A stretch of DNA of 63,561 nucleotides, counting the filler, from Basidiobolus ranarum (taxonomy: Eukaryota), in assembly GCA_040143965.1 (NCBI GenBank). It is 40 parts of 40 records of this genome, joined end to end, with 100 filler letters (N's around TTAATTAATTAA, not from the genome) between each part and the next. Parts side by side here need not be neighbours in the genome. Positions count along the whole stretch, not along the records: positions 44,630 to 46,117 come from JASJQH010011905.1; 39 more parts are not named here. One strand, given 5' to 3'. Under the pieces are notes generated by a model. It ran no database searches and had not been told where the DNA came from. It was given only the letters and a program-made list of their open reading frames with translations. The position numbers and the translations under genes were made by a program. Shown in pieces: positions 5,529-58,807 of this stretch (its first letter is position 1; each line of letters starts with the position of its first letter).

Positions 5529-6257
5529 CTAGATGAATATAAGAAATTTGTAGGCAATGTAGAAAGATAAAATAGCAAGACCAAGGTTGATCAGATTGCA
5601 CTCCCATATCGTAAACATATCCAGACCATATCGAACTAAAGCTTGTTCACCAGTACGAAAACAAATAGCAGCTTCAGGTCCCTCCTCCAGGCAAGAAAAT
5701 TTGAGACCGGTAAATTCATTCACACTAATTGCTTGTGTAAGGTAACCAACGGAGGAAATATAGCGAATCCATCTGAAATAGACAGGAATATCGTTGTTAT
5801 TCAGCACTCCTCCTCCAAATACCATTAAAGTCTGCATAAAGAATCTCGAAGGTAAATTATAGTCCAAAAGGAATTAGAAAATACTGGAGATTCCAAAAAA
5901 GTGGCACGATACCATAATAATAATTTGAGCAGCCACTTGTCCTATCCGCACAAACTCAATATCATGTCCAAGAACAAGACCAAGCTCAATAACAAGACCA
6001 ATTCCTAGCGCAGCCAGGACTTGGAACAAGTTTGCAGTTATATACAGAAAGTATTTCGATGCACCATATTGTAAATGTACCAAAAAATACACTATGGTAT
6101 TGAAGATAATGGTCGACACAAACAGAAGCGGAATTTCACTGACTAATTTTGCTAAGAAGAAGGAAGAGACTCGATAACTTCCAGCCTTTCGCTCTCTAAT
6201 CAAGACTCTACGTTGATGAGCAAATGTACCAACAAGAGGGAGTACGATACTAAAGGT
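5529..6257 (-). CDS. ABCG-family transporter, last two exons (ABC-2 membrane domain)
   Basis: RERKAGSYRVSSFFLAK and IPVYFRWIRYIS...NEF motifs. GT-AG intron 5912-5832 joins QIIIM to TLMVFGG in frame. Upstream acceptor AG at 6259-6258. Confidence 0.9.
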
Positions 6258-9645: not shown

Positions 9646-11089
9646 TGTTGTGTCCAAGAGAAAAGTTGATAAAAAGTCTTGAACTTTACTGAACCAAAGA
9701 AACAGTTAAGTGCAGAATCTTAGAACTGTTTAAGCAAGGTATATTAGCAGAGCAGATCTAACTAATATACATATTGGGAATAGCAGTGGGTTGCTATGTT
9801 ATAGTAGGGAGTAGGTTTGCTAGGAAGCTAAGCTTGGTGTCCTGTAGATGTTAGTGGATACTAGGCTTGGATAAAAATGAGAGGGGAATATTGAATTTGT
9901 TGAGAAACACTGAGAAGTGCTGTGATCCTATATTTGTTGAGACACACACTAAACCAAAGGTTCAGTTAGCTTTCTTTATACTTTTTGATAGCAAAGTGAA
10001 TTAGTCAGTGCCAAGATATTAGATGACTAATTCTGATAAAAGAAAATTTGATTGGATAGATAGATAGAGAGATAAGCGAGTCACGTATCAGCTGAAGTCT
10101 TGGCAGTGAAAGATCATTGGTTATGAGCGTTGTGGCTCATATTGACTTGTGTCTAGGCAGATGACTCAGAGGTTAATACTGATTGGATAATGATCATGTG
10201 ATAGGTCATATGATCTGATAGAAGGGATAAGCAAATAGATAGTTAGTCAGGTGATAGGTCACATGATAAAGTCACTGGATAAGGTCAGGTGACTAGTTAG
10301 CAAGAATGATAAACTAAACAGATATTCATGCAAGTTGTATAGATATGGCGTAAGTTAAACAACTTTGTATGTTGGTGCACAACATCATTCCCTCCCTGGA
10401 TGAGGACTCTTCTTAGTAGATGATCCTCTACGTTTCCAATATTGGTCAATGATAGAGATATCATCAAAGTGGCTATAGGGCTCCCAGGTGTTGTGTTTGG
10501 CATCGTAACCTTTCCACTTGACTAAGTAAAGGCAGTTGGGTTCTTCACCATCATGATCAACTATGGCTTCTACTTCATATGATTCTGTAGATATTGGATC
10601 TTGAGAAATAAGCTTAAGGGAAGATGGTGGAAAGTTCTTGGGTAGTAAGGCTCCAGTGTTGTCTTGAAGTATGTAAGATCCTCCAGTGGTTCTTCTGATA
10701 ATCTTGAAGGGACCTTCATACTTGGGATCAAGTTTGGATTGGCGGATGGGATCTAAAGTCATGACAAAAGAACCTTCAGGAAAACTAGTGGTCTTGTGCC
10801 TAGAAGTGTGCTTAGATATCATCTTCTGTTGACTACTTTGGCTTCTTGAGTTGATTTCAGGGTAGACTATATCTGTCAGAAATTGAAGGCATTTTACCAG
10901 GTCTCCAGTGTTAATTGGTTTGAGTAGAACATGTTGATAGCTCTGTAGTGGGTTGAACATTCTTCCAAACATGAGTGAGAATAGAGTGAATCCATAGAGT
11001 GCAGAAATCTTGGTGTTGATAGCATATTGAACCATTGGGATTGACTTGGCCCAATTCTTCTTGACTCCTTTGATAGATTTACGGATTAT
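9646..11089 (-). mobile_element. Chromovirus 3' end: integrase C-terminus, GPY/F, chromodomain (10385-11089), PPT and full 739-bp LTR-E (9646-10384)
   Basis: KLDPKYEGPFKI; YEVEAIVDH...YLVKWKGY...NTWEP; PPT GGGAGGGAA; LTR termini TGTTGTG...CACAACA. Confidence 0.95.
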
Positions 11090-11189: not shown

Positions 11190-11690
11190 GATGTCGAGAA
11201 TTTTTTGTAGCTGCTCCAATACATTTAAAATATTGATCAATGATTGAGATATCATCATAGTGGCTGTAGGGCTCTAAGGTATAGTGTTTGGCATCATAAC
11301 CTTTCTACTTCACCAAGTAAAGGCAATTGAGTTCTTCACCATCATGCTCAACTATGGCTTTTACTTCATAGGATTCACTATATATTAGATCTTGTGAAAT
11401 AAGTTTCAGGGAGGATGATGGAAAGTTCACAGGTAGTAAGGCTCTGGTCTTATCTTGAAGTATATAAGATCCTCCAGTGGTCCTTCTGATGATCTTGAAG
11501 GGACCTTTGTACTTGGGATCAAGTTTGGATTGGCAGATGGGGTCTAAAGTCATGACAAAAGAACCTTCAGAAAACTAGTGGTCTAGTGCCTGGAAGAATG
11601 CTTAGAAATTATCTTCTGTTGACTATTTTTGCTTCTTGAGATGATTCCAGGGTAGAATATATCCATTAGAAATCAAAGACATTTGACTAT
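11190..11690 (-). mobile_element. Second, more decayed copy of the same integrase/chromodomain
   Basis: KLDPKYKGPFKI...YEVKAIVEH...YLVK* (W codon changed to stop). Confidence 0.9.
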
Positions 11691-31254: not shown

Positions 31255-31810
31255 TTAAAGTATATTGGGAGTTTGTTGGAAGTGGTTTAAGAGAACTAAA
31301 AGAAATGGTGGTTTTTTATGTTGAATAGTCAATATTTATTTAACATCTTAGTTAACTTTAGTATGATACATATATCAGAAACCAAAGGCAACATATCTAT
31401 AGCTCCTATATTCTAATTGAGAATGTGTCTATATCTATACAACAAGTATGTCCTATTACTCCTACTTATCTATTATCTCCTATTATATAAACTCCTCAAT
31501 ATCTCAAACAATTGATTTACTTCTTTGCTATATAGGTAACCATATTCTCTTGAGAATTAAGCAACTACAACACTACCATAAGTTGCATCTAATATATAAA
31601 GTCTAACCCCATTATGTCTGGATCCCCAAACATTTTGCATATTCCTTTATTGAGTAGAAGGTAGATATTCATAGTTTTGTCAAGCTGTAAACAAAGGTGT
31701 AAGTGTTAAAGTATTTGGGAGCCTGTTGGAAGTGGTTTGGAGAATTAGAGGAATTGGTGGTTTTCACTTATTGATTTATTGAGTAGAAAGTTGACATTTA
31801 TAGTTTTGTC
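31255..31810. mobile_element. Stack of LTRs: LTR-B pieces and an LTR family F copy (about 31320-31632)
   Basis: LTR-F matches 44630-44827 and 56555-56870 in reverse complement. An LTR-B end lies at 31704. Confidence 0.8.
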
Positions 31811-44629: not shown

Positions 44630-44827
44630 TCAATTGTTTGAGATATTCAGGAGTTTGTGTAATAAGATATAATAGATAAGTGGGGGTAATAAGACATACT
44701 TGTTATATAGATATAGTGATATTCCTATTTAGAATATAGGGGCTATAGATACGTTGCTTTCTGTTTCTGATATATGTATCATAACTAAAGTGAACTACAA
44801 TGTTGAATAAAGATTAATTATCCAACA
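44630..44827 (-). mobile_element. LTR family F inserted into a Ty3 gag
   Basis: Ends GATTAATTATCCAACA and matches 56680-56870. Confidence 0.8.
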
Positions 44828-45797
44828 GTTTTCTAACTGTGTTCTGAGGATGAGCTGGAAGTTGGGTGGTAAGAAGAAGGCTTTGATGTTGGTTTTGAAT
44901 GCACTCCAGCTAGGGAAAGCAGTAGTATTCTGAGCTTCTGCTTGGAGAAGTCTTCCGTGATACCAAGACAATGCTAGATCTTGGAGATAGCTACCTATTG
45001 CTGCCACCTTCTTGTCTTCACTGATTGATTTTGTATTAAAGGCCTGTTCTGTCTGTATTAACCATGCTACTACATTCTCACTTGGTGTGCCATGATATGT
45101 GGCTATCTTCACTGGAATCCTGGCCCCTTGTCCTGCTGCTTGTTCCTTTAGTTCCACAAGTATATCTGTTACTGTAGTCATCCATGCATCTGGCATTTCT
45201 GTGTTTCCTTGATTGCCTGACATTTTTTCTTGTCTTTTGCTTGTACTACTTTATATTCATTGTGCTTTCTTTGGTGGAGGATCTTTCTTAGTAAATCACT
45301 GCTACCATATATTGAGGCTGGTTCCTGAGGTGAGTGCAATTTTGGGACTTGATTCACTGATAAATTGACCAATTAATTCTATTTTGATGGTGCTATTTTT
45401 ATAGGGTTGATCAGGGAAAAATCAAGTGGCATTCCTGCTGGATTTGGGAGTGTGCTAATTTCAAAACATGTATATAATACTGACAGCCCATTTCCAATGT
45501 CTTGTAACTTTTGTCTCCATGGTTGGTTTGTTTTAAAATTTTTACCTGAAGTAGAATAATAACAGGGAATGATCTCCCTAAAGTGTAGTAATGATACGTC
45601 CAGTAGTTCTGGAGATATTTGCATTTCTTTGCTTGTTTTGGTGATTGCAAGACATGTACAAAATGCATAGATATGAAACTGGGTGACGGTCAAGGTTTGC
45701 TTATATGCTTTATGTGTATGAAATATTGTGTTAATTGAGACATTATGTTGTCTCCAAAATTGCCATCACTTTTGTCTGATAATCCAATTTCATAACA
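44828..45797 (-). mobile_element. Ty3/gypsy 5' end: LTR family H (45313-45797), PBS TGGTAGCAG (from 45307 downward), gag capsid (45223-44828)
   Basis: TG...CA termini, tRNA-3'-end-type PBS, and capsid-like YHGTPSENVVAWL...YLQDLALSWY...WSAFKTNIKAFF. Confidence 0.85.
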
Positions 45798-45808
45798 ATA
45801 GCATACAA

Positions 45809-45881
45809 GGATTGGTAGCTCAGTGGTTAAAGCACCTTGCTAGAGTGAAGAAGGTCCCAGGTTCAAATCCTGGTCAGACTA
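45809..45881 (+). tRNA. Degenerate tRNA gene/pseudogene; isotype uncertain (nominal anticodon AGA, Pro-like 3' half)
   Basis: A box TAGCTCAGTGG, B box GGTTCAAATCC, perfect T-stem CCAGG/CCTGG, tRNA-length spacing. Acceptor and anticodon stems are imperfect. Confidence 0.7.
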
Positions 45882-45906
45882 ATACTTCTCCCTAAATAAT
45901 TTCAAC

Positions 45907-46117
45907 AAAAGACTTTTTGTTCTTTTTTAACCTGAAGTAAAACTTTGGTTTCAGATAGTTTTGCATTGTTTTCTTCTCTTACTAACAGTGTCACAAAGTC
46001 CTTTTCCTTGCAGCAGCATTTTCATTTTAATTTTCCAAACTTGATAATTGGTTCCATCCAATTTTTCAGAAGAAGGAAAAGTTCCATGAATTTGAGAAGT
46101 AGACATTACAGAGAGTG
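45907..46117 (-). mobile_element. Copia gag start remnant
   Basis: Matches 54870-55062; LDGTNYQVWKIKMKMLL. Confidence 0.8.
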
Positions 46118-54150: not shown

Positions 54151-55424
54151 TTTTGATCAGTGATGGTGCATCCTGACTTATCAAAGTAGAATTTTGGCCT
54201 TTCTGAAGTAGCCTTGCATACAGATATTAAATTCTTGGCAATATCTGGAACATGTTATACACTCTTAAAAGTATACACTTTCTCTTCAGAAGCTTGTTTT
54301 AAATTGACTTGAATTGTTCCCATTCCAATGGCATCTAATGTATGGTCATCTCCCATGAAAATCTTTCTTGGGATTTCTTCATGATCCACAAACCAATATC
54401 TTTCATTTGTGAAATATTGGGAGGCTCCAGAATTAGTATGCCATATCTGAGATTTCTTGTGGGTCATCATAGATAGAGCAGATATGAACAAGTGATCTTC
54501 TGTGGTAACCACAATTCTAGATTCAGTATGTTATTCTTCTTTTACAATTGTTTTAAAGCAATCTTTGCTTACATGGCCAGTTCTCTTACAGTAATTGCAG
54601 AAAGTGTCCTTTCTCTTCTTGAAGTGCTTTTGCTCTTTGTAGGAAGGTTGCTCATAGCCTATTTAAGCATTTTGATTATTCTTTTGTTTAGATCCTAATT
54701 TGCATAAGTTAAAGAATTGTCTTCTTAGAAACATCTTCTTGATGGCATAACATGCTTGGTGGCTGTTTTCCAAGGCTTTCCATACCTTCTTGGCAGTTTT
54801 AGCTTTTGAACATTGAATTAGCAATTTGTATTTAACATTAAGGCAAATTGTGTTAAAGGTACTTTGTTCTCTTTTAACCTGGAGTAAAACTTTGGTTTCA
54901 TATATCTTGCATTGTTTTCTTCTCCTACAGCAATGTCCAAAAGTTCTTTTTCTTGCTGGAGCATTTTCATTTTAATTTTGCAAACTTGATCATTGGTTCC
55001 ATGCACTGTTTCAGAAGAGGGAAAAGTTCCATATATTTGAGAAGTAGACATTACAGAGAGTGCAAGCTTGGGACTGATAACCTGTTAAAGTATTTGGGAG
55101 CCTGTTAGAAGTGGTTTGGAGAAATAGAGAAATTGGTTGCTTTTACTTACTAATTTATTGAGTAAAAAGCTGACATTTTTAGTTTTGTCAGGATATAAGC
55201 AAACTAAAGCTTAAAATATGTTAAGGAAGGTCCCAGGAACAAGTGTTTTGGGGCTTCTAGTACAAGTTTGAAAAATCTACATATCTGAGAACTGCTAAGT
55301 TGGTAAAAATATATCAAGTAAACTCTGATTGAGAACAATGTGTAATATCTTGATGAAATATAAGGTAACTTAGTACTAAGCCATATATTACTATGTAGGT
55401 GTTTAGTCAATGCTAATTTCAACA
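54151..55424 (-). mobile_element. Copia 5' LTR-B (55083-55424), PBS, internally deleted gag, protease
   Basis: Decayed PBS GGTTATCAGTCCC; WHTNSGASQY. Confidence 0.9.
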
Positions 55425-55736: not shown

Positions 55737-57222
55737 CTTCATAATCCACAAACCAATGATTTTCATTTGAGAAGTGTTGGGAGGCTCCAGAATCCATATC
55801 TCATGTCTGAGAATCCTTCTTGGTAGTCATGGATAGAGAAGATATGATCAAGTGATCTTCTGTTGTAATAACATTTCCAGATTCAGTATGATTTTCTTCC
55901 TTTATATTTCTTTTAAATTAATCCTTACTCAAATGGTCAGTTCTTTTATATTAATCATGAAAAATGTTACTTTTCTTGTTAAAGTGCTTTTGACCATTAG
56001 AGGAAGGCTTCCCAAAGCCTATTAAATCATTTTGTTCATTAGTTTGGTGGGGTCCTAATTTGAATAAATCTTCATCCAGAAGTCCACCAAATATATAGTT
56101 TAAGGTCAAATTTTCAGTTCTTGATTATAGAGCCATTAATAGGCTCTGAAACTCATGTGGCATGCTATTCAGGACTGTAACTATGATATCCTGGTCAGTA
56201 GTAGTTGCTCCAATGCACTCCATTTCATCCACTAAAATAGTGACTCTATTAATTAGTGATATAATGTCTTCTCCTGGCTTCATCTTTAAGTTAAAAATTG
56301 TCCTCTTAAAAATATCTTGTTGGCAGCAGAACATATTTGGTAGATGTCTCCCAAGGCTTTCTGTAACATCTTGATGGTTTTAGCTCTTGAACATTGAATT
56401 AGAAATTTGTCTTTACCATTTGGATAAATTATGTTAAAGGCACTTTATTCTTTTTTTACCTGGAGTAAAACTTTGATTTCACATAGTTTTACATTGTTTT
56501 CTTCTCCTTCAACTGTGTGCAAAGTTCTTTTTCTTGCAGCAGTATTTTCAGCTTTGTTGGAGGATCTTGACATAATGGGGGTAGATTTTGTATATTAGAA
56601 GCAACTTATGATGGTGTGTTTTAGTTAAATTATTCTTAAGAGTATACAGTGACTTATATAGTAGAAGAGTAAATCAATTGTTTGAGATATTCAGAAGTTT
56701 GTGTAATAAGATATAAAGATAAGTGTTGGTAATAAGACATACTTTTTGTATAGATATAGAGATATTCCAATTTAGAGTAAAGGGGCTATAGATATATTGC
56801 TTTCTGTTTCTGATATATGTATTGTAACAAAAGTTAACTAAGATGTTGAATAAAGATTAATTATACAATAATTTTAATTTTCCAGACTTGATAATTGGTT
56901 CCATCCAATTTTTCAGAAGAGTGAGAAGTTCAAGAAGTTTGAGAAGTAGATATTACAGAGAGTGCAAGCTTGGGGCTCCTAACCCGTTAAAGTATTTGGG
57001 AGCCTGTCAGAAGTGGTTTGGAGAATTAGAGAAATTGGTGGTTTTCACTTATTGAGTTATTGAGTAGAAGGTTGACATTAATGGTTTTGTAAGGATGTAA
57101 ACAAACCAACATGTAAAATGTGTCAAGGAAGGTCCCAGAAACATGTGTACAAGGTTTGGAGCTTCTAGTACAAGTTTGAAAAATCTATATATCTGAGAAC
57201 TTCTAAGTTGGTAAAAATACTG
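55737..57222 (-). mobile_element. Copia 5' end (LTR-B from about 56985, PBS, gag, protease) with solo LTR-F at 56555-56870
   Basis: PBS GGTTAGGAGCCC; gag IFNLKMKPGEDI; DSGASQHF. Confidence 0.9.
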
Positions 57223-57322: not shown

Positions 57323-57542
57323 TTCAACGTTGGGTTCTTGTTTGTCCTAATACATGTAATAATAGAATGACGAAAGAGTGGTTAGGTACGATGATAGAGC
57401 TCAATATGTTTGTTAATCTTACCTGTGCTCTTCTGGATAGGATCTTCACTTGGAAAGTACCACGTGCTAACAACGCTTGGACGATCAGGCTACCAAAGCT
57501 GCCATTACCGCCTGCGACTGCAATTACTTTGAAATCAGACAT
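57323..57542 (-). CDS. NmrA-like/isoflavone-reductase-family NAD(P)-binding protein, first exons
   Basis: KVIAVAGGNGSFGSLIVQALL...VKILSR Rossmann start; intron 57422-57347 (GTAAG...TAG); TATA-like element near 57605. Confidence 0.85.
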
Positions 57543-58030
57543 TGATACTTGTATGAAGATGGATTGTTTACTATTTACTAATCAACAAAGCCGAATACCT
57601 CCATTTTATATAAAACCATGAAGATTGCTAGTCTATTCGATGAATCAGCAATTACTAATGTACCTGCAATCGTATGATTATGGAAAGTACATTTTCGAAG
57701 TTTAGATCAAACCTTATTCGCGTTTAATGATCTTTTCGAACTCAATTCAATGTAGTGTAATGCCAATCTTTTTGAGAAATTAAAGTGATCGTTGATGGGA
57801 TAACTACAAATTGAATTAACGGGATAACCGGTGGGCGGGATCGGCGGGATAACTAAATCGAGGTGGAGAAACAATCTGTGATTCAAAGGGTGACTGATGC
57901 CTTGGGACTTCCAGATATATCGAGAACTTGAGCGGGGTTTGGATATTCGGAATAATCTAATGCCACACAAAATTTTAAGTTGGTATCAAATGTGTTTAGG
58001 TTCGAATTTCGAAAATATTCCTATGCAAAA

Positions 58031-58102
58031 TGGCCCGGGTGAAGTCGAATCCACAACTTTCTCTTCCGGCGGGAGACACTCTTTCTACTGAGCTACAGGG
58101 CC
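58031..58102 (-). tRNA. tRNA-Arg(CCG)-like gene, probably a pseudogene
   Basis: GGCCCTG TAGCTCAG...GAGT G TCTCC CGCCGGA AGAGA...GTGGATTCGACTTCAC CCGGGCC A, then TTTT. Acceptor stem 6/7 paired, anticodon stem 4/5 paired. Confidence 0.7.
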
Positions 58103-58113
58103 CGCTCTGTGTT

Positions 58114-58807
58114 TGTTACGAAATTGGATTATTGGACAAAAAGCGATGGCAATTTCGGAGACAACATAATGTCTCAATCAGCTCAATATATTGCACACAT
58201 ATAGTGCATAAGCAAACCTCAACCAAGTTTCATGTTCACACCTTTCCCACATGCCTCGCAATCACCGAGGCTCAATAAACATATTGTGACTGGCTCCTGA
58301 GATGAGTGCAATTTTGGGACTTGATTCACTGATAAATTGATTGATTGACTTTATTTCGCTTGTGCTATTTTTATAGAGTTGATCAGGGGAAACCCGGATT
58401 TGGGAGTGTGATAAATTCGAAACTGGTAAACAAAGGTGACAACTCATTTCCGATGTTTTGTAACTTCTGTTTGCGATGTCAGCTCGTTTCATAATTTGAA
58501 TCTATAGTAGCATAAAAGTATTTTATTTCGATTGCGTTATTTGCACAGGGGTGATCAGGGAAATGCGAGCGGCATTCCTGGCTGATTTAGGAGTGTTTAA
58601 AATTCGTAACTTGTGTGTAAGAACGTTAACATTCTACTAGTAAATACGTATTTACAGTGATAAGCATTAAGCATGCATTGAAGAAGATTAATGACGAACG
58701 AAAAATGATAGTGTTTATTATTATAAGTTTGCAAAAAATCCGTATTTTGCTTAGTTTTTGTCATTTGGTGAGTGATTTTCGACCAAGAATTCACTGAGTG
58801 TACTGAA
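58114..58807. mobile_element. Two LTR-H pieces: U3 end on plus (58114 to about 58270) and an inverted copy from its U5 end (58285 onward)
   Basis: TGTTACGAAATTGG matches the reverse complement of 45797 downward. TGTGACTGGCTCCTGAG matches 45313 onward. Confidence 0.8.

Follow-up and report, generated by a model that had tools for sequence, protein, structure and literature searches.

Two copies of a long terminal repeat of Basidiobolus ranarum, LTR-H, start 11 bp upstream of two different tRNA-like genes. [quoted passage not shown] This adjacency of LTR-H and tRNA-like genes is real and non-random. The LTR-H element is probably a Ty3/gypsy retrotransposon whose insertions take place at a set distance upstream of Pol III genes. 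Tested against the present data, tRNA-directed integration is partly supported, and with n = 2 it has the standing of a well-founded hypothesis.

The window, i.e. the whole stretch of DNA that was analyzed, has a length of 63,561 bases and consists of 40 separate contigs of 1,484-1,500 bp each, which are joined by N/TTAATTAATTAA spacers. Window-wide counts cover its 59,661 non-N bases. The two contigs with LTR-H junctions, contig 29 and contig 37, and the features of importance are compiled in Table 1.

Table 1. Positions of contigs, LTRs, tRNA-like genes and coding fragments in the window.
Feature	Position	Strand	Remarks
Contig 29	44630-46117		carries tRNA1 and LTR-H with PBS and gag
LTR X end, unrelated to LTR-H	44630..44827	minus	TGTTGGA...TCCAACA; truncates gag after codon 132
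gag N-terminus, Ty3/gypsy-type	44828..45223	minus	132 codons, then broken by LTR X
Primer-binding site (PBS) TGGTAGCAGTGA	45296..45307 (45307->45296)	minus	5 nt past the CA end of the LTR
LTR-H as 5' LTR, contig 29	45313..45797	minus	485 bp, TG...CA; start TGTTATGAAATTGG at 45797, end ...CTCA at 45313
Spacer, LTR-H terminus to tRNA1 +1	45798..45808		11 bp
tRNA-like gene 1 (tRNA1)	45809..45881	plus	ARAGORN Ser(AGA); Rfam tRNA 42 bits vs gathering score 29
Ty1/copia-type gag N-terminus fragment	45907..46117 (from ~46107)	minus	abuts the 3' side of tRNA1
Contig 37	57323-58807		carries tRNA2 and two LTR-H pieces
tRNA-like gene 2 (tRNA2)	58031..58102	minus	Rfam 34.3 bits, E 5e-05 (contig searched alone)
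Spacer, tRNA2 +1 to LTR-H terminus	58103..58113		11 bp
LTR-H copy 1, contig 37	58114..58284	plus	just the first ~171 bp; start TGTTACGAAATTGG
LTR-H copy 2, contig 37, inverted, 3' part	58285..58620	minus	CA end at 58285; nested in copy 1
ABC-transporter fragment	5877-6257	minus	69% identity to a Basidiobolus ranarum protein

The LTR-H termini and their tRNA-like neighbors

The LTR-H terminus TGTTAYGAAATTGG was found twice, at 45797 in an element on the minus strand and, on the plus strand, at 58114. The sequence-only reading of this DNA had reported a TG end at 45797 with tRNA +1 at 45809, and a second LTR end at 58114 with the +1 of a minus-strand tRNA at 58102, each with a gap of 11 bp, and both sets of coordinates turned out to be right. 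The spacers measure 10 bp instead if the T that precedes TGTTA in both loci is counted as part of the LTR. When each contig was compared with the window by blastn, LTR-H was confined to contigs 29 and 37. Two out of two LTR-H 5' termini thus sit 11 bp from two out of two tRNA matches, a count that applies to the 59,661 non-N bases of the window.

Script alignments of the two loci were used to locate the border of homology. In the initial portion of the LTR, 122 of 152 positions are identical, and in longer stretches of it 133 of 170 and 182 of 231 (~78-79%). Agreement is limited to 4 of 11 positions in the spacers and to 38 of 68 in the tRNAs; the latter value is the level of identity expected between unrelated tRNAs. 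Because the LTRs are about 80% identical and the spacers and tRNAs match only at these levels, homology starts at the TG of the LTR, plus or minus the one shared T. That it ends at the TG terminus argues for two separate insertions and against a single duplicated block. The targets were also independent, in that the two junctions have different tRNA genes and different spacers. These values bear out the earlier statements that the spacers are unrelated and the tRNAs differ, and the break of the LTR homology at a canonical TG end agrees with the view that the tRNA is unlikely to be part of the element. TG...CA bounds were observed as well: both copies start with TGTTAYG, and the ends read ...CTCA (45313) and ...TCACA (inverted copy, 58285). 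Both ends of an insertion are present in neither contig 29 nor contig 37.

The two tRNA-like genes deviate from standard tRNAs. tRNA1 has a body of 73 bases with intact A and B boxes, four non-standard stem pairs and no CpG, and it is devoid of a long variable arm. Eukaryotic serine tRNAs have a long variable arm, and therefore the AGA anticodon misfits the class of tRNA1. tRNA2, which was absent from the ARAGORN output and from both whole-window Rfam scans, has well-preserved A and B boxes. Three of its pairs are non-standard, and its T loop, at 6 nt, is one base short. Read by eye, it is Arg(CCG)-like, with G33 where U33 is expected, and a TTTT run follows immediately 3' of it. The sequence GTAGCTCAGT is identical in both genes at positions 7-16, in the A-box region. 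Rfam yielded no further tRNA match in the window at E<=1. Both tRNA1 and tRNA2 may be decayed genes or pseudogenes, or they may be SINE-like heads. In the ~60 kb of the window, no second copy of either tRNA-like sequence or of its 3' flank was present, so that the multi-copy head with a common body or tail that typifies a tRNA-derived SINE was not observed.

On its other side, tRNA2 is bordered by non-repetitive DNA with a normal CpG content. An ATG-led ORF, noted by eye and unscored, starts ~490 bp from tRNA2; we take this ORF to be NmrA-like. tRNA1 is flanked on both sides by assorted transposon pieces instead of unique DNA. The copia-type fragment at its 3' side was labeled by eye and without a score, from a KLDGTNYQVWK-like start, and the label is unconnected with the Pfam hits, which concern another contig. 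Homology of this fragment to two other copies (54790-55062 and 56365-56964) is lost 14-26 bp past the end of tRNA1. The edge of the fragment is not a simple insertion boundary, because the sequence is internal to gag and is not an LTR end. As tRNA1 is wedged between transposon fragments, with the copia gag piece following after 14-26 bp, it is doubtful whether it is a resident gene.

The arrangement in contig 37 is interpreted as an insertion of one LTR-H within another copy. The inverted copy carries an internal tandem duplication of ~100 bp, and 58350-58391 and 58522-58563 match each other. The U5 end of this copy (58285) is 183 bp away from tRNA2; it falls within the first LTR and not at -11, and hence not every LTR-H end is located at -11. 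The final 187 bp of the contig, which follow the inverted copy, had no match in the window.

Structure and relatives of the LTR-H element

Judged by its sequence organization, contig 29 carries the 5' LTR-PBS-gag portion of a truncated Ty3/gypsy-type retrotransposon (Metaviridae). The sequence-only reading had the LTR lead into a PBS, and TGGTAGCAGTGA is indeed present 5 nt after the CA end. We take this PBS to base-pair with the 3' end of initiator tRNA-Met. The Ty3 capsid that had been claimed to follow was recovered through relatives, a PDB profile and Atlas rows, but not through a direct Pfam match, since the gag ORF of contig 29 gave none at E<=0.01. An exhaustive phmmer search with the gag retrieved 227 relatives at E<=1e-3, the best of which had 42% identity. 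Retrotrans_gag and Ty3_capsid were found in all nine relatives that were scanned. All four long relatives scanned, which are remote, had the order PR-RT-RNaseH-IN, one of them with a chromodomain. For a profile built from 29 family members, the best PDB matches were the Ty3 Gag-Pol chains 7q5b (E 4.9e-14) and 6r22, and the Atlas structural rows for the gag were Ty3_capsid. A word-index search at near length returned only the window's own protein, and a search among longer proteins returned nothing.

No second copy of the gag was detected in the window by tblastn with the gag itself and three of its relatives. This result and the truncation after gag codon 132 place the pol of the element outside the window, and its integrase and RNase H likewise. 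Two integrase C-terminal fragments on the minus strand, at 10436-11056 (with a chromodomain) and 11206-11565, are chromovirus-type, and no link between them and LTR-H could be established. The LTR X that interrupts the gag belongs to a family of ~310 bp; other copies are located at 56551-56870 (blastn match 56674-56875) and 31319-31515, and LTR X also interrupts a copia gag in contig 36.

Members of the closest gag family were compared at 32 metagenome loci from soil, with gag identities of 31-44%. The motif TGGTAGC occurs upstream of gag in 20 of these 32 loci, and in the seven loci displayed it lies 2-3 nt past a ...TTACA LTR end. This placement after the LTR end indicates that the family anatomy matches that of LTR-H. 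For four loci, L011 (308), L015 (57), L031 (447) and L041 (322), the 5' LTR boundaries were set by comparing copies. Their LTRs start with TGTAAC... or TGTAAGG... and end with ...TTACA, and their PBS is the 12-base TGGTAGCAGCGG/TGGTAGCAGCAG. The upstream flanks of the four loci are AT-rich or unremarkable and contain no Pol III gene.

The search for tRNAs next to these relatives gave uniform results. ARAGORN detected a tRNA in none of the 32 metagenome loci, and Rfam (E<=0.1) detected neither a tRNA nor another Pol III gene in the 20 loci with the most upstream DNA. Among the four defined 5' LTR junctions (L011, L015, L031 and L041; the flank of L015 comprises only 56 bp), none was tRNA-adjacent. 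These counts indicate that the relatives lack the habit, and they are silent on LTR-H itself. LTR-H DNA was absent from all 32 loci, and a 22-base LTR-H motif had no match in metagenome contigs and none in viral contigs. A 19-base terminal motif matched 10 times in prokaryotes and was discarded, because by our estimate about 9 matches are expected by chance.

Explanations for the common position of the two junctions

Position-specific targeting of Pol III genes, as put forward in the sequence-only reading, gained support from several sides: the same distance and orientation were found twice, the homology breaks sharply at TG, the tRNAs and spacers differ, the gag is of the Ty3/gypsy type and the PBS is of the TGGTAGC type. 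However, the sample is n = 2, two randomly oriented junctions would agree in orientation in 50% of cases, and the gag relatives are without tRNAs. The mechanism that we favor would consist of an LTR-H retrotransposon that is primed from its TGGTAGC-type PBS and whose integration is directed by the Pol III transcription machinery assembled on a tRNA gene. Pol III factors seated at the A and B boxes (TFIIIC/TFIIIB), rather than the sequence of the neighboring DNA, would presumably define its position. By analogy, the contact could resemble that of Ty3 integrase with TFIIIB, or that of DGLT-A RNase H with TFIIIC. The LTR-H family would then be expected to target tRNA genes genome-wide.

Guidance by proteins has to be weighed against guidance by DNA, in which the integrase, or its DNA-binding part, would recognize conserved tRNA-gene DNA such as GTAGCTCAGT and cut at a fixed distance, without Pol III factors. 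The geometry would be the same in both cases, the candidate motif is shared by the two tRNA-like genes at 7-16, and degenerate tRNAs would remain targets under direct recognition. Yet the spacers at the cut sites are unrelated (4/11), and we know of no tRNA-targeting LTR element that works by recognizing a DNA motif. The tRNA-targeting elements are described as making protein contacts with TFIIIB, TFIIIC or Pol III (PMC5911963; PMC6101501), and we regard targeting by a DNA motif as unlikely. The same holds for the idea that the tRNA-like sequence and LTR-H form one composite repeat, or an old segmental duplication, in which the tRNA part has diverged or been converted and the adjacency was inherited. 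The degeneracy of both tRNA-like sequences, and the location of tRNA1 in a transposon patchwork that lacks unique DNA on either side, would be consistent with such a unit. What makes it improbable is that identity drops from ~80% to 4/11 and 38/68 exactly at the TG end, that just 5 nt separate a matching CA end from the PBS, that the far side of tRNA2 is unique genic DNA, and that the window contains no more tRNA-like copies.

A looser, regional preference would also bring LTRs close to tRNA genes, be it for accessible, nucleosome-free DNA around Pol III genes, as in the case of Ty1, or for clusters of transposons, and the value of 11 bp would then be coincidental, as it would be under pure chance. 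The third LTR-H terminus, 183 bp from tRNA2, the nested transposon fragments around tRNA1 and the gag relatives without tRNA association could be accommodated in this way. But a preference that extends over hundreds of bp would give the same distance and orientation twice only about once in several hundred cases, and for a chance coincidence of both termini our rough overall estimate, made for 59,661 bases, is ~1e-7; a regional or accidental origin is thus quite unlikely. That the junctions are assembly artefacts, generated by mis-joining of short repeat-derived contigs, seems very unlikely. All contigs are ~1.5 kb long, the majority of them are repeats, and the inversion of one LTR into another in contig 37 is odd, but random mis-joins would hardly be the same to the base, and the LTR copies differ by ~20% and also have different flanks. 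All four alternatives, i.e. recognition of a DNA motif, a composite repeat, a regional preference and an assembly error, are less likely than fixed-position integration upstream of Pol III genes. The notion that the tRNAs are by-products of reverse transcription was rejected, because sequence copied from a primer tRNA ends up at U5, on the side of the PBS, and the tRNAs at both junctions face the start of U3.

Known tRNA-directed elements and the genomic setting of LTR-H

A small number of retrotransposons that integrate at specific positions next to tRNA genes have been characterized, in budding yeasts, fission yeast and social amoebae (PMC5006619; PMC5911963). Insertions of Ty3 are located 1-4 bp from the start site, ~15 bp before the mature tRNA, and involve contacts between integrase and TFIIIB (PMC5006619; PMC5911963; PMC6101501). 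For DGLT-A, the distance to the tRNA coding sequence downstream is 13-33 bp, with a mean of 15 (PMC5006619; PMC5911963), and insertion occurs in either orientation (PMC5911963); its targeting involves the RNase H and the N-terminal part of the integrase, which bind the TFIIIC subunit Tfc4 (PMC6101501). The distance is 6-30 bp for Tca8/beta, and Tj1 inserts 1-10 bp upstream of the start site (PMC5006619; PMC5911963 Table 1). The behavior of Tj1, Tca8/beta, Tyl3, Ylt1 and Tyl6 is described as similar to that of Ty3 and DGLT-A (PMC5006619; PMC5911963; PMC6101501). In P. pallidum, DGLT-A.1-3 and DGLT-A.4 differ in the tRNA trait (PMC5006619). Judged by the distances of these systems, an LTR end at -11 fits the tRNA-targeting class.

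LTR-H resembles Ty3 (Saccharomyces cerevisiae; Ty3p of S. paradoxus) in that it is Ty3/gypsy-type, Ty3 Gag-Pol being the best solved relative of the gag family, and in its PBS of the TGGTAGC type. The PBS of Ty3 itself is of the TGGTAGC type. In contrast to Ty3, the distance of LTR-H is 11 bp, the gag identity is remote and detectable only by profile, and the host is an early-diverging fungus with many CpG-depleted repeats instead of a yeast with a compact genome. DGLT-A (Dictyostelium and other dictyostelids) is likewise Ty3/gypsy-type and located upstream of tRNAs, and its trait occurs in some lineages and is missing in close relatives, which parallels the tRNA-free gag relatives of LTR-H. 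It differs from LTR-H by its amoebozoan host and by insertion in either orientation. Tj1 (Schizosaccharomyces japonicus), Tca8/beta (Candida albicans) and Tyl3/Ylt1/Tyl6 (Yarrowia lipolytica) differ in having Ascomycota yeasts as hosts.

The review table of tRNA-targeting LTR elements comprises only budding yeasts, Schizosaccharomyces japonicus and dictyostelids (PMC5911963). A search of full-text literature, mostly from outside the subscription journals, revealed no description of tRNA-directed elements in Basidiobolus, Zoopagomycota, Mucoromycota or early-diverging fungi. In the Entomophthora genome paper, tRNAs are mentioned just as an annotation step. If confirmed, LTR-H would represent a known class of tRNA-targeting element in a new and unexpected type of host, and an early-diverging fungal case, from sampled DNA that consists mostly of decayed repeats, would widen the phylogenetic range of the class. 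Two sources give adaptation to a compact genome as the usual explanation of tRNA-adjacent integration (PMC5006619; PMC5911963). Targeting by LTR-H, if true, would run against this account of a safe haven in gene-dense genomes and would put the compact-genome explanation to the test. It would also add a third or fourth independent way to recognize the Pol III machinery, beside those of Ty3 (TFIIIB) and DGLT-A (TFIIIC). We tentatively consider it possible that an early-diverging fungus with many repeats and CpG methylation (Basidiobolus-like) hosts a Ty3/gypsy lineage that integrates precisely at Pol III start sites, perhaps also at those of decayed tRNA-like units that bind TFIIIC. This would constitute a further independent origin of tRNA targeting, outside compact genomes, an origin to which the lack of the habit in the nearest gag relatives points.

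Basidiobolus ranarum belongs to the phylum Basidiobolomycota (NCBI taxonomy). By our count from the composition table, the observed/expected ratio of CpG is below 0.15 in 26 of the 40 contigs of the window, and these are mostly retroelement fragments. Contigs that look genic have ratios of 0.4-1.0, and the ratio of contig 37 is 1.02. In the alignment of the LTR-H copies, all 11 sites at which the contig 37 pieces have a CpG are occupied by TpG or CpA in contig 29. It follows that the LTR-H of contig 29 has undergone CpG decay, as have most repeats of the window. This pattern suggests repeat-directed CpG decay that is either methylation-driven or RIP-like.
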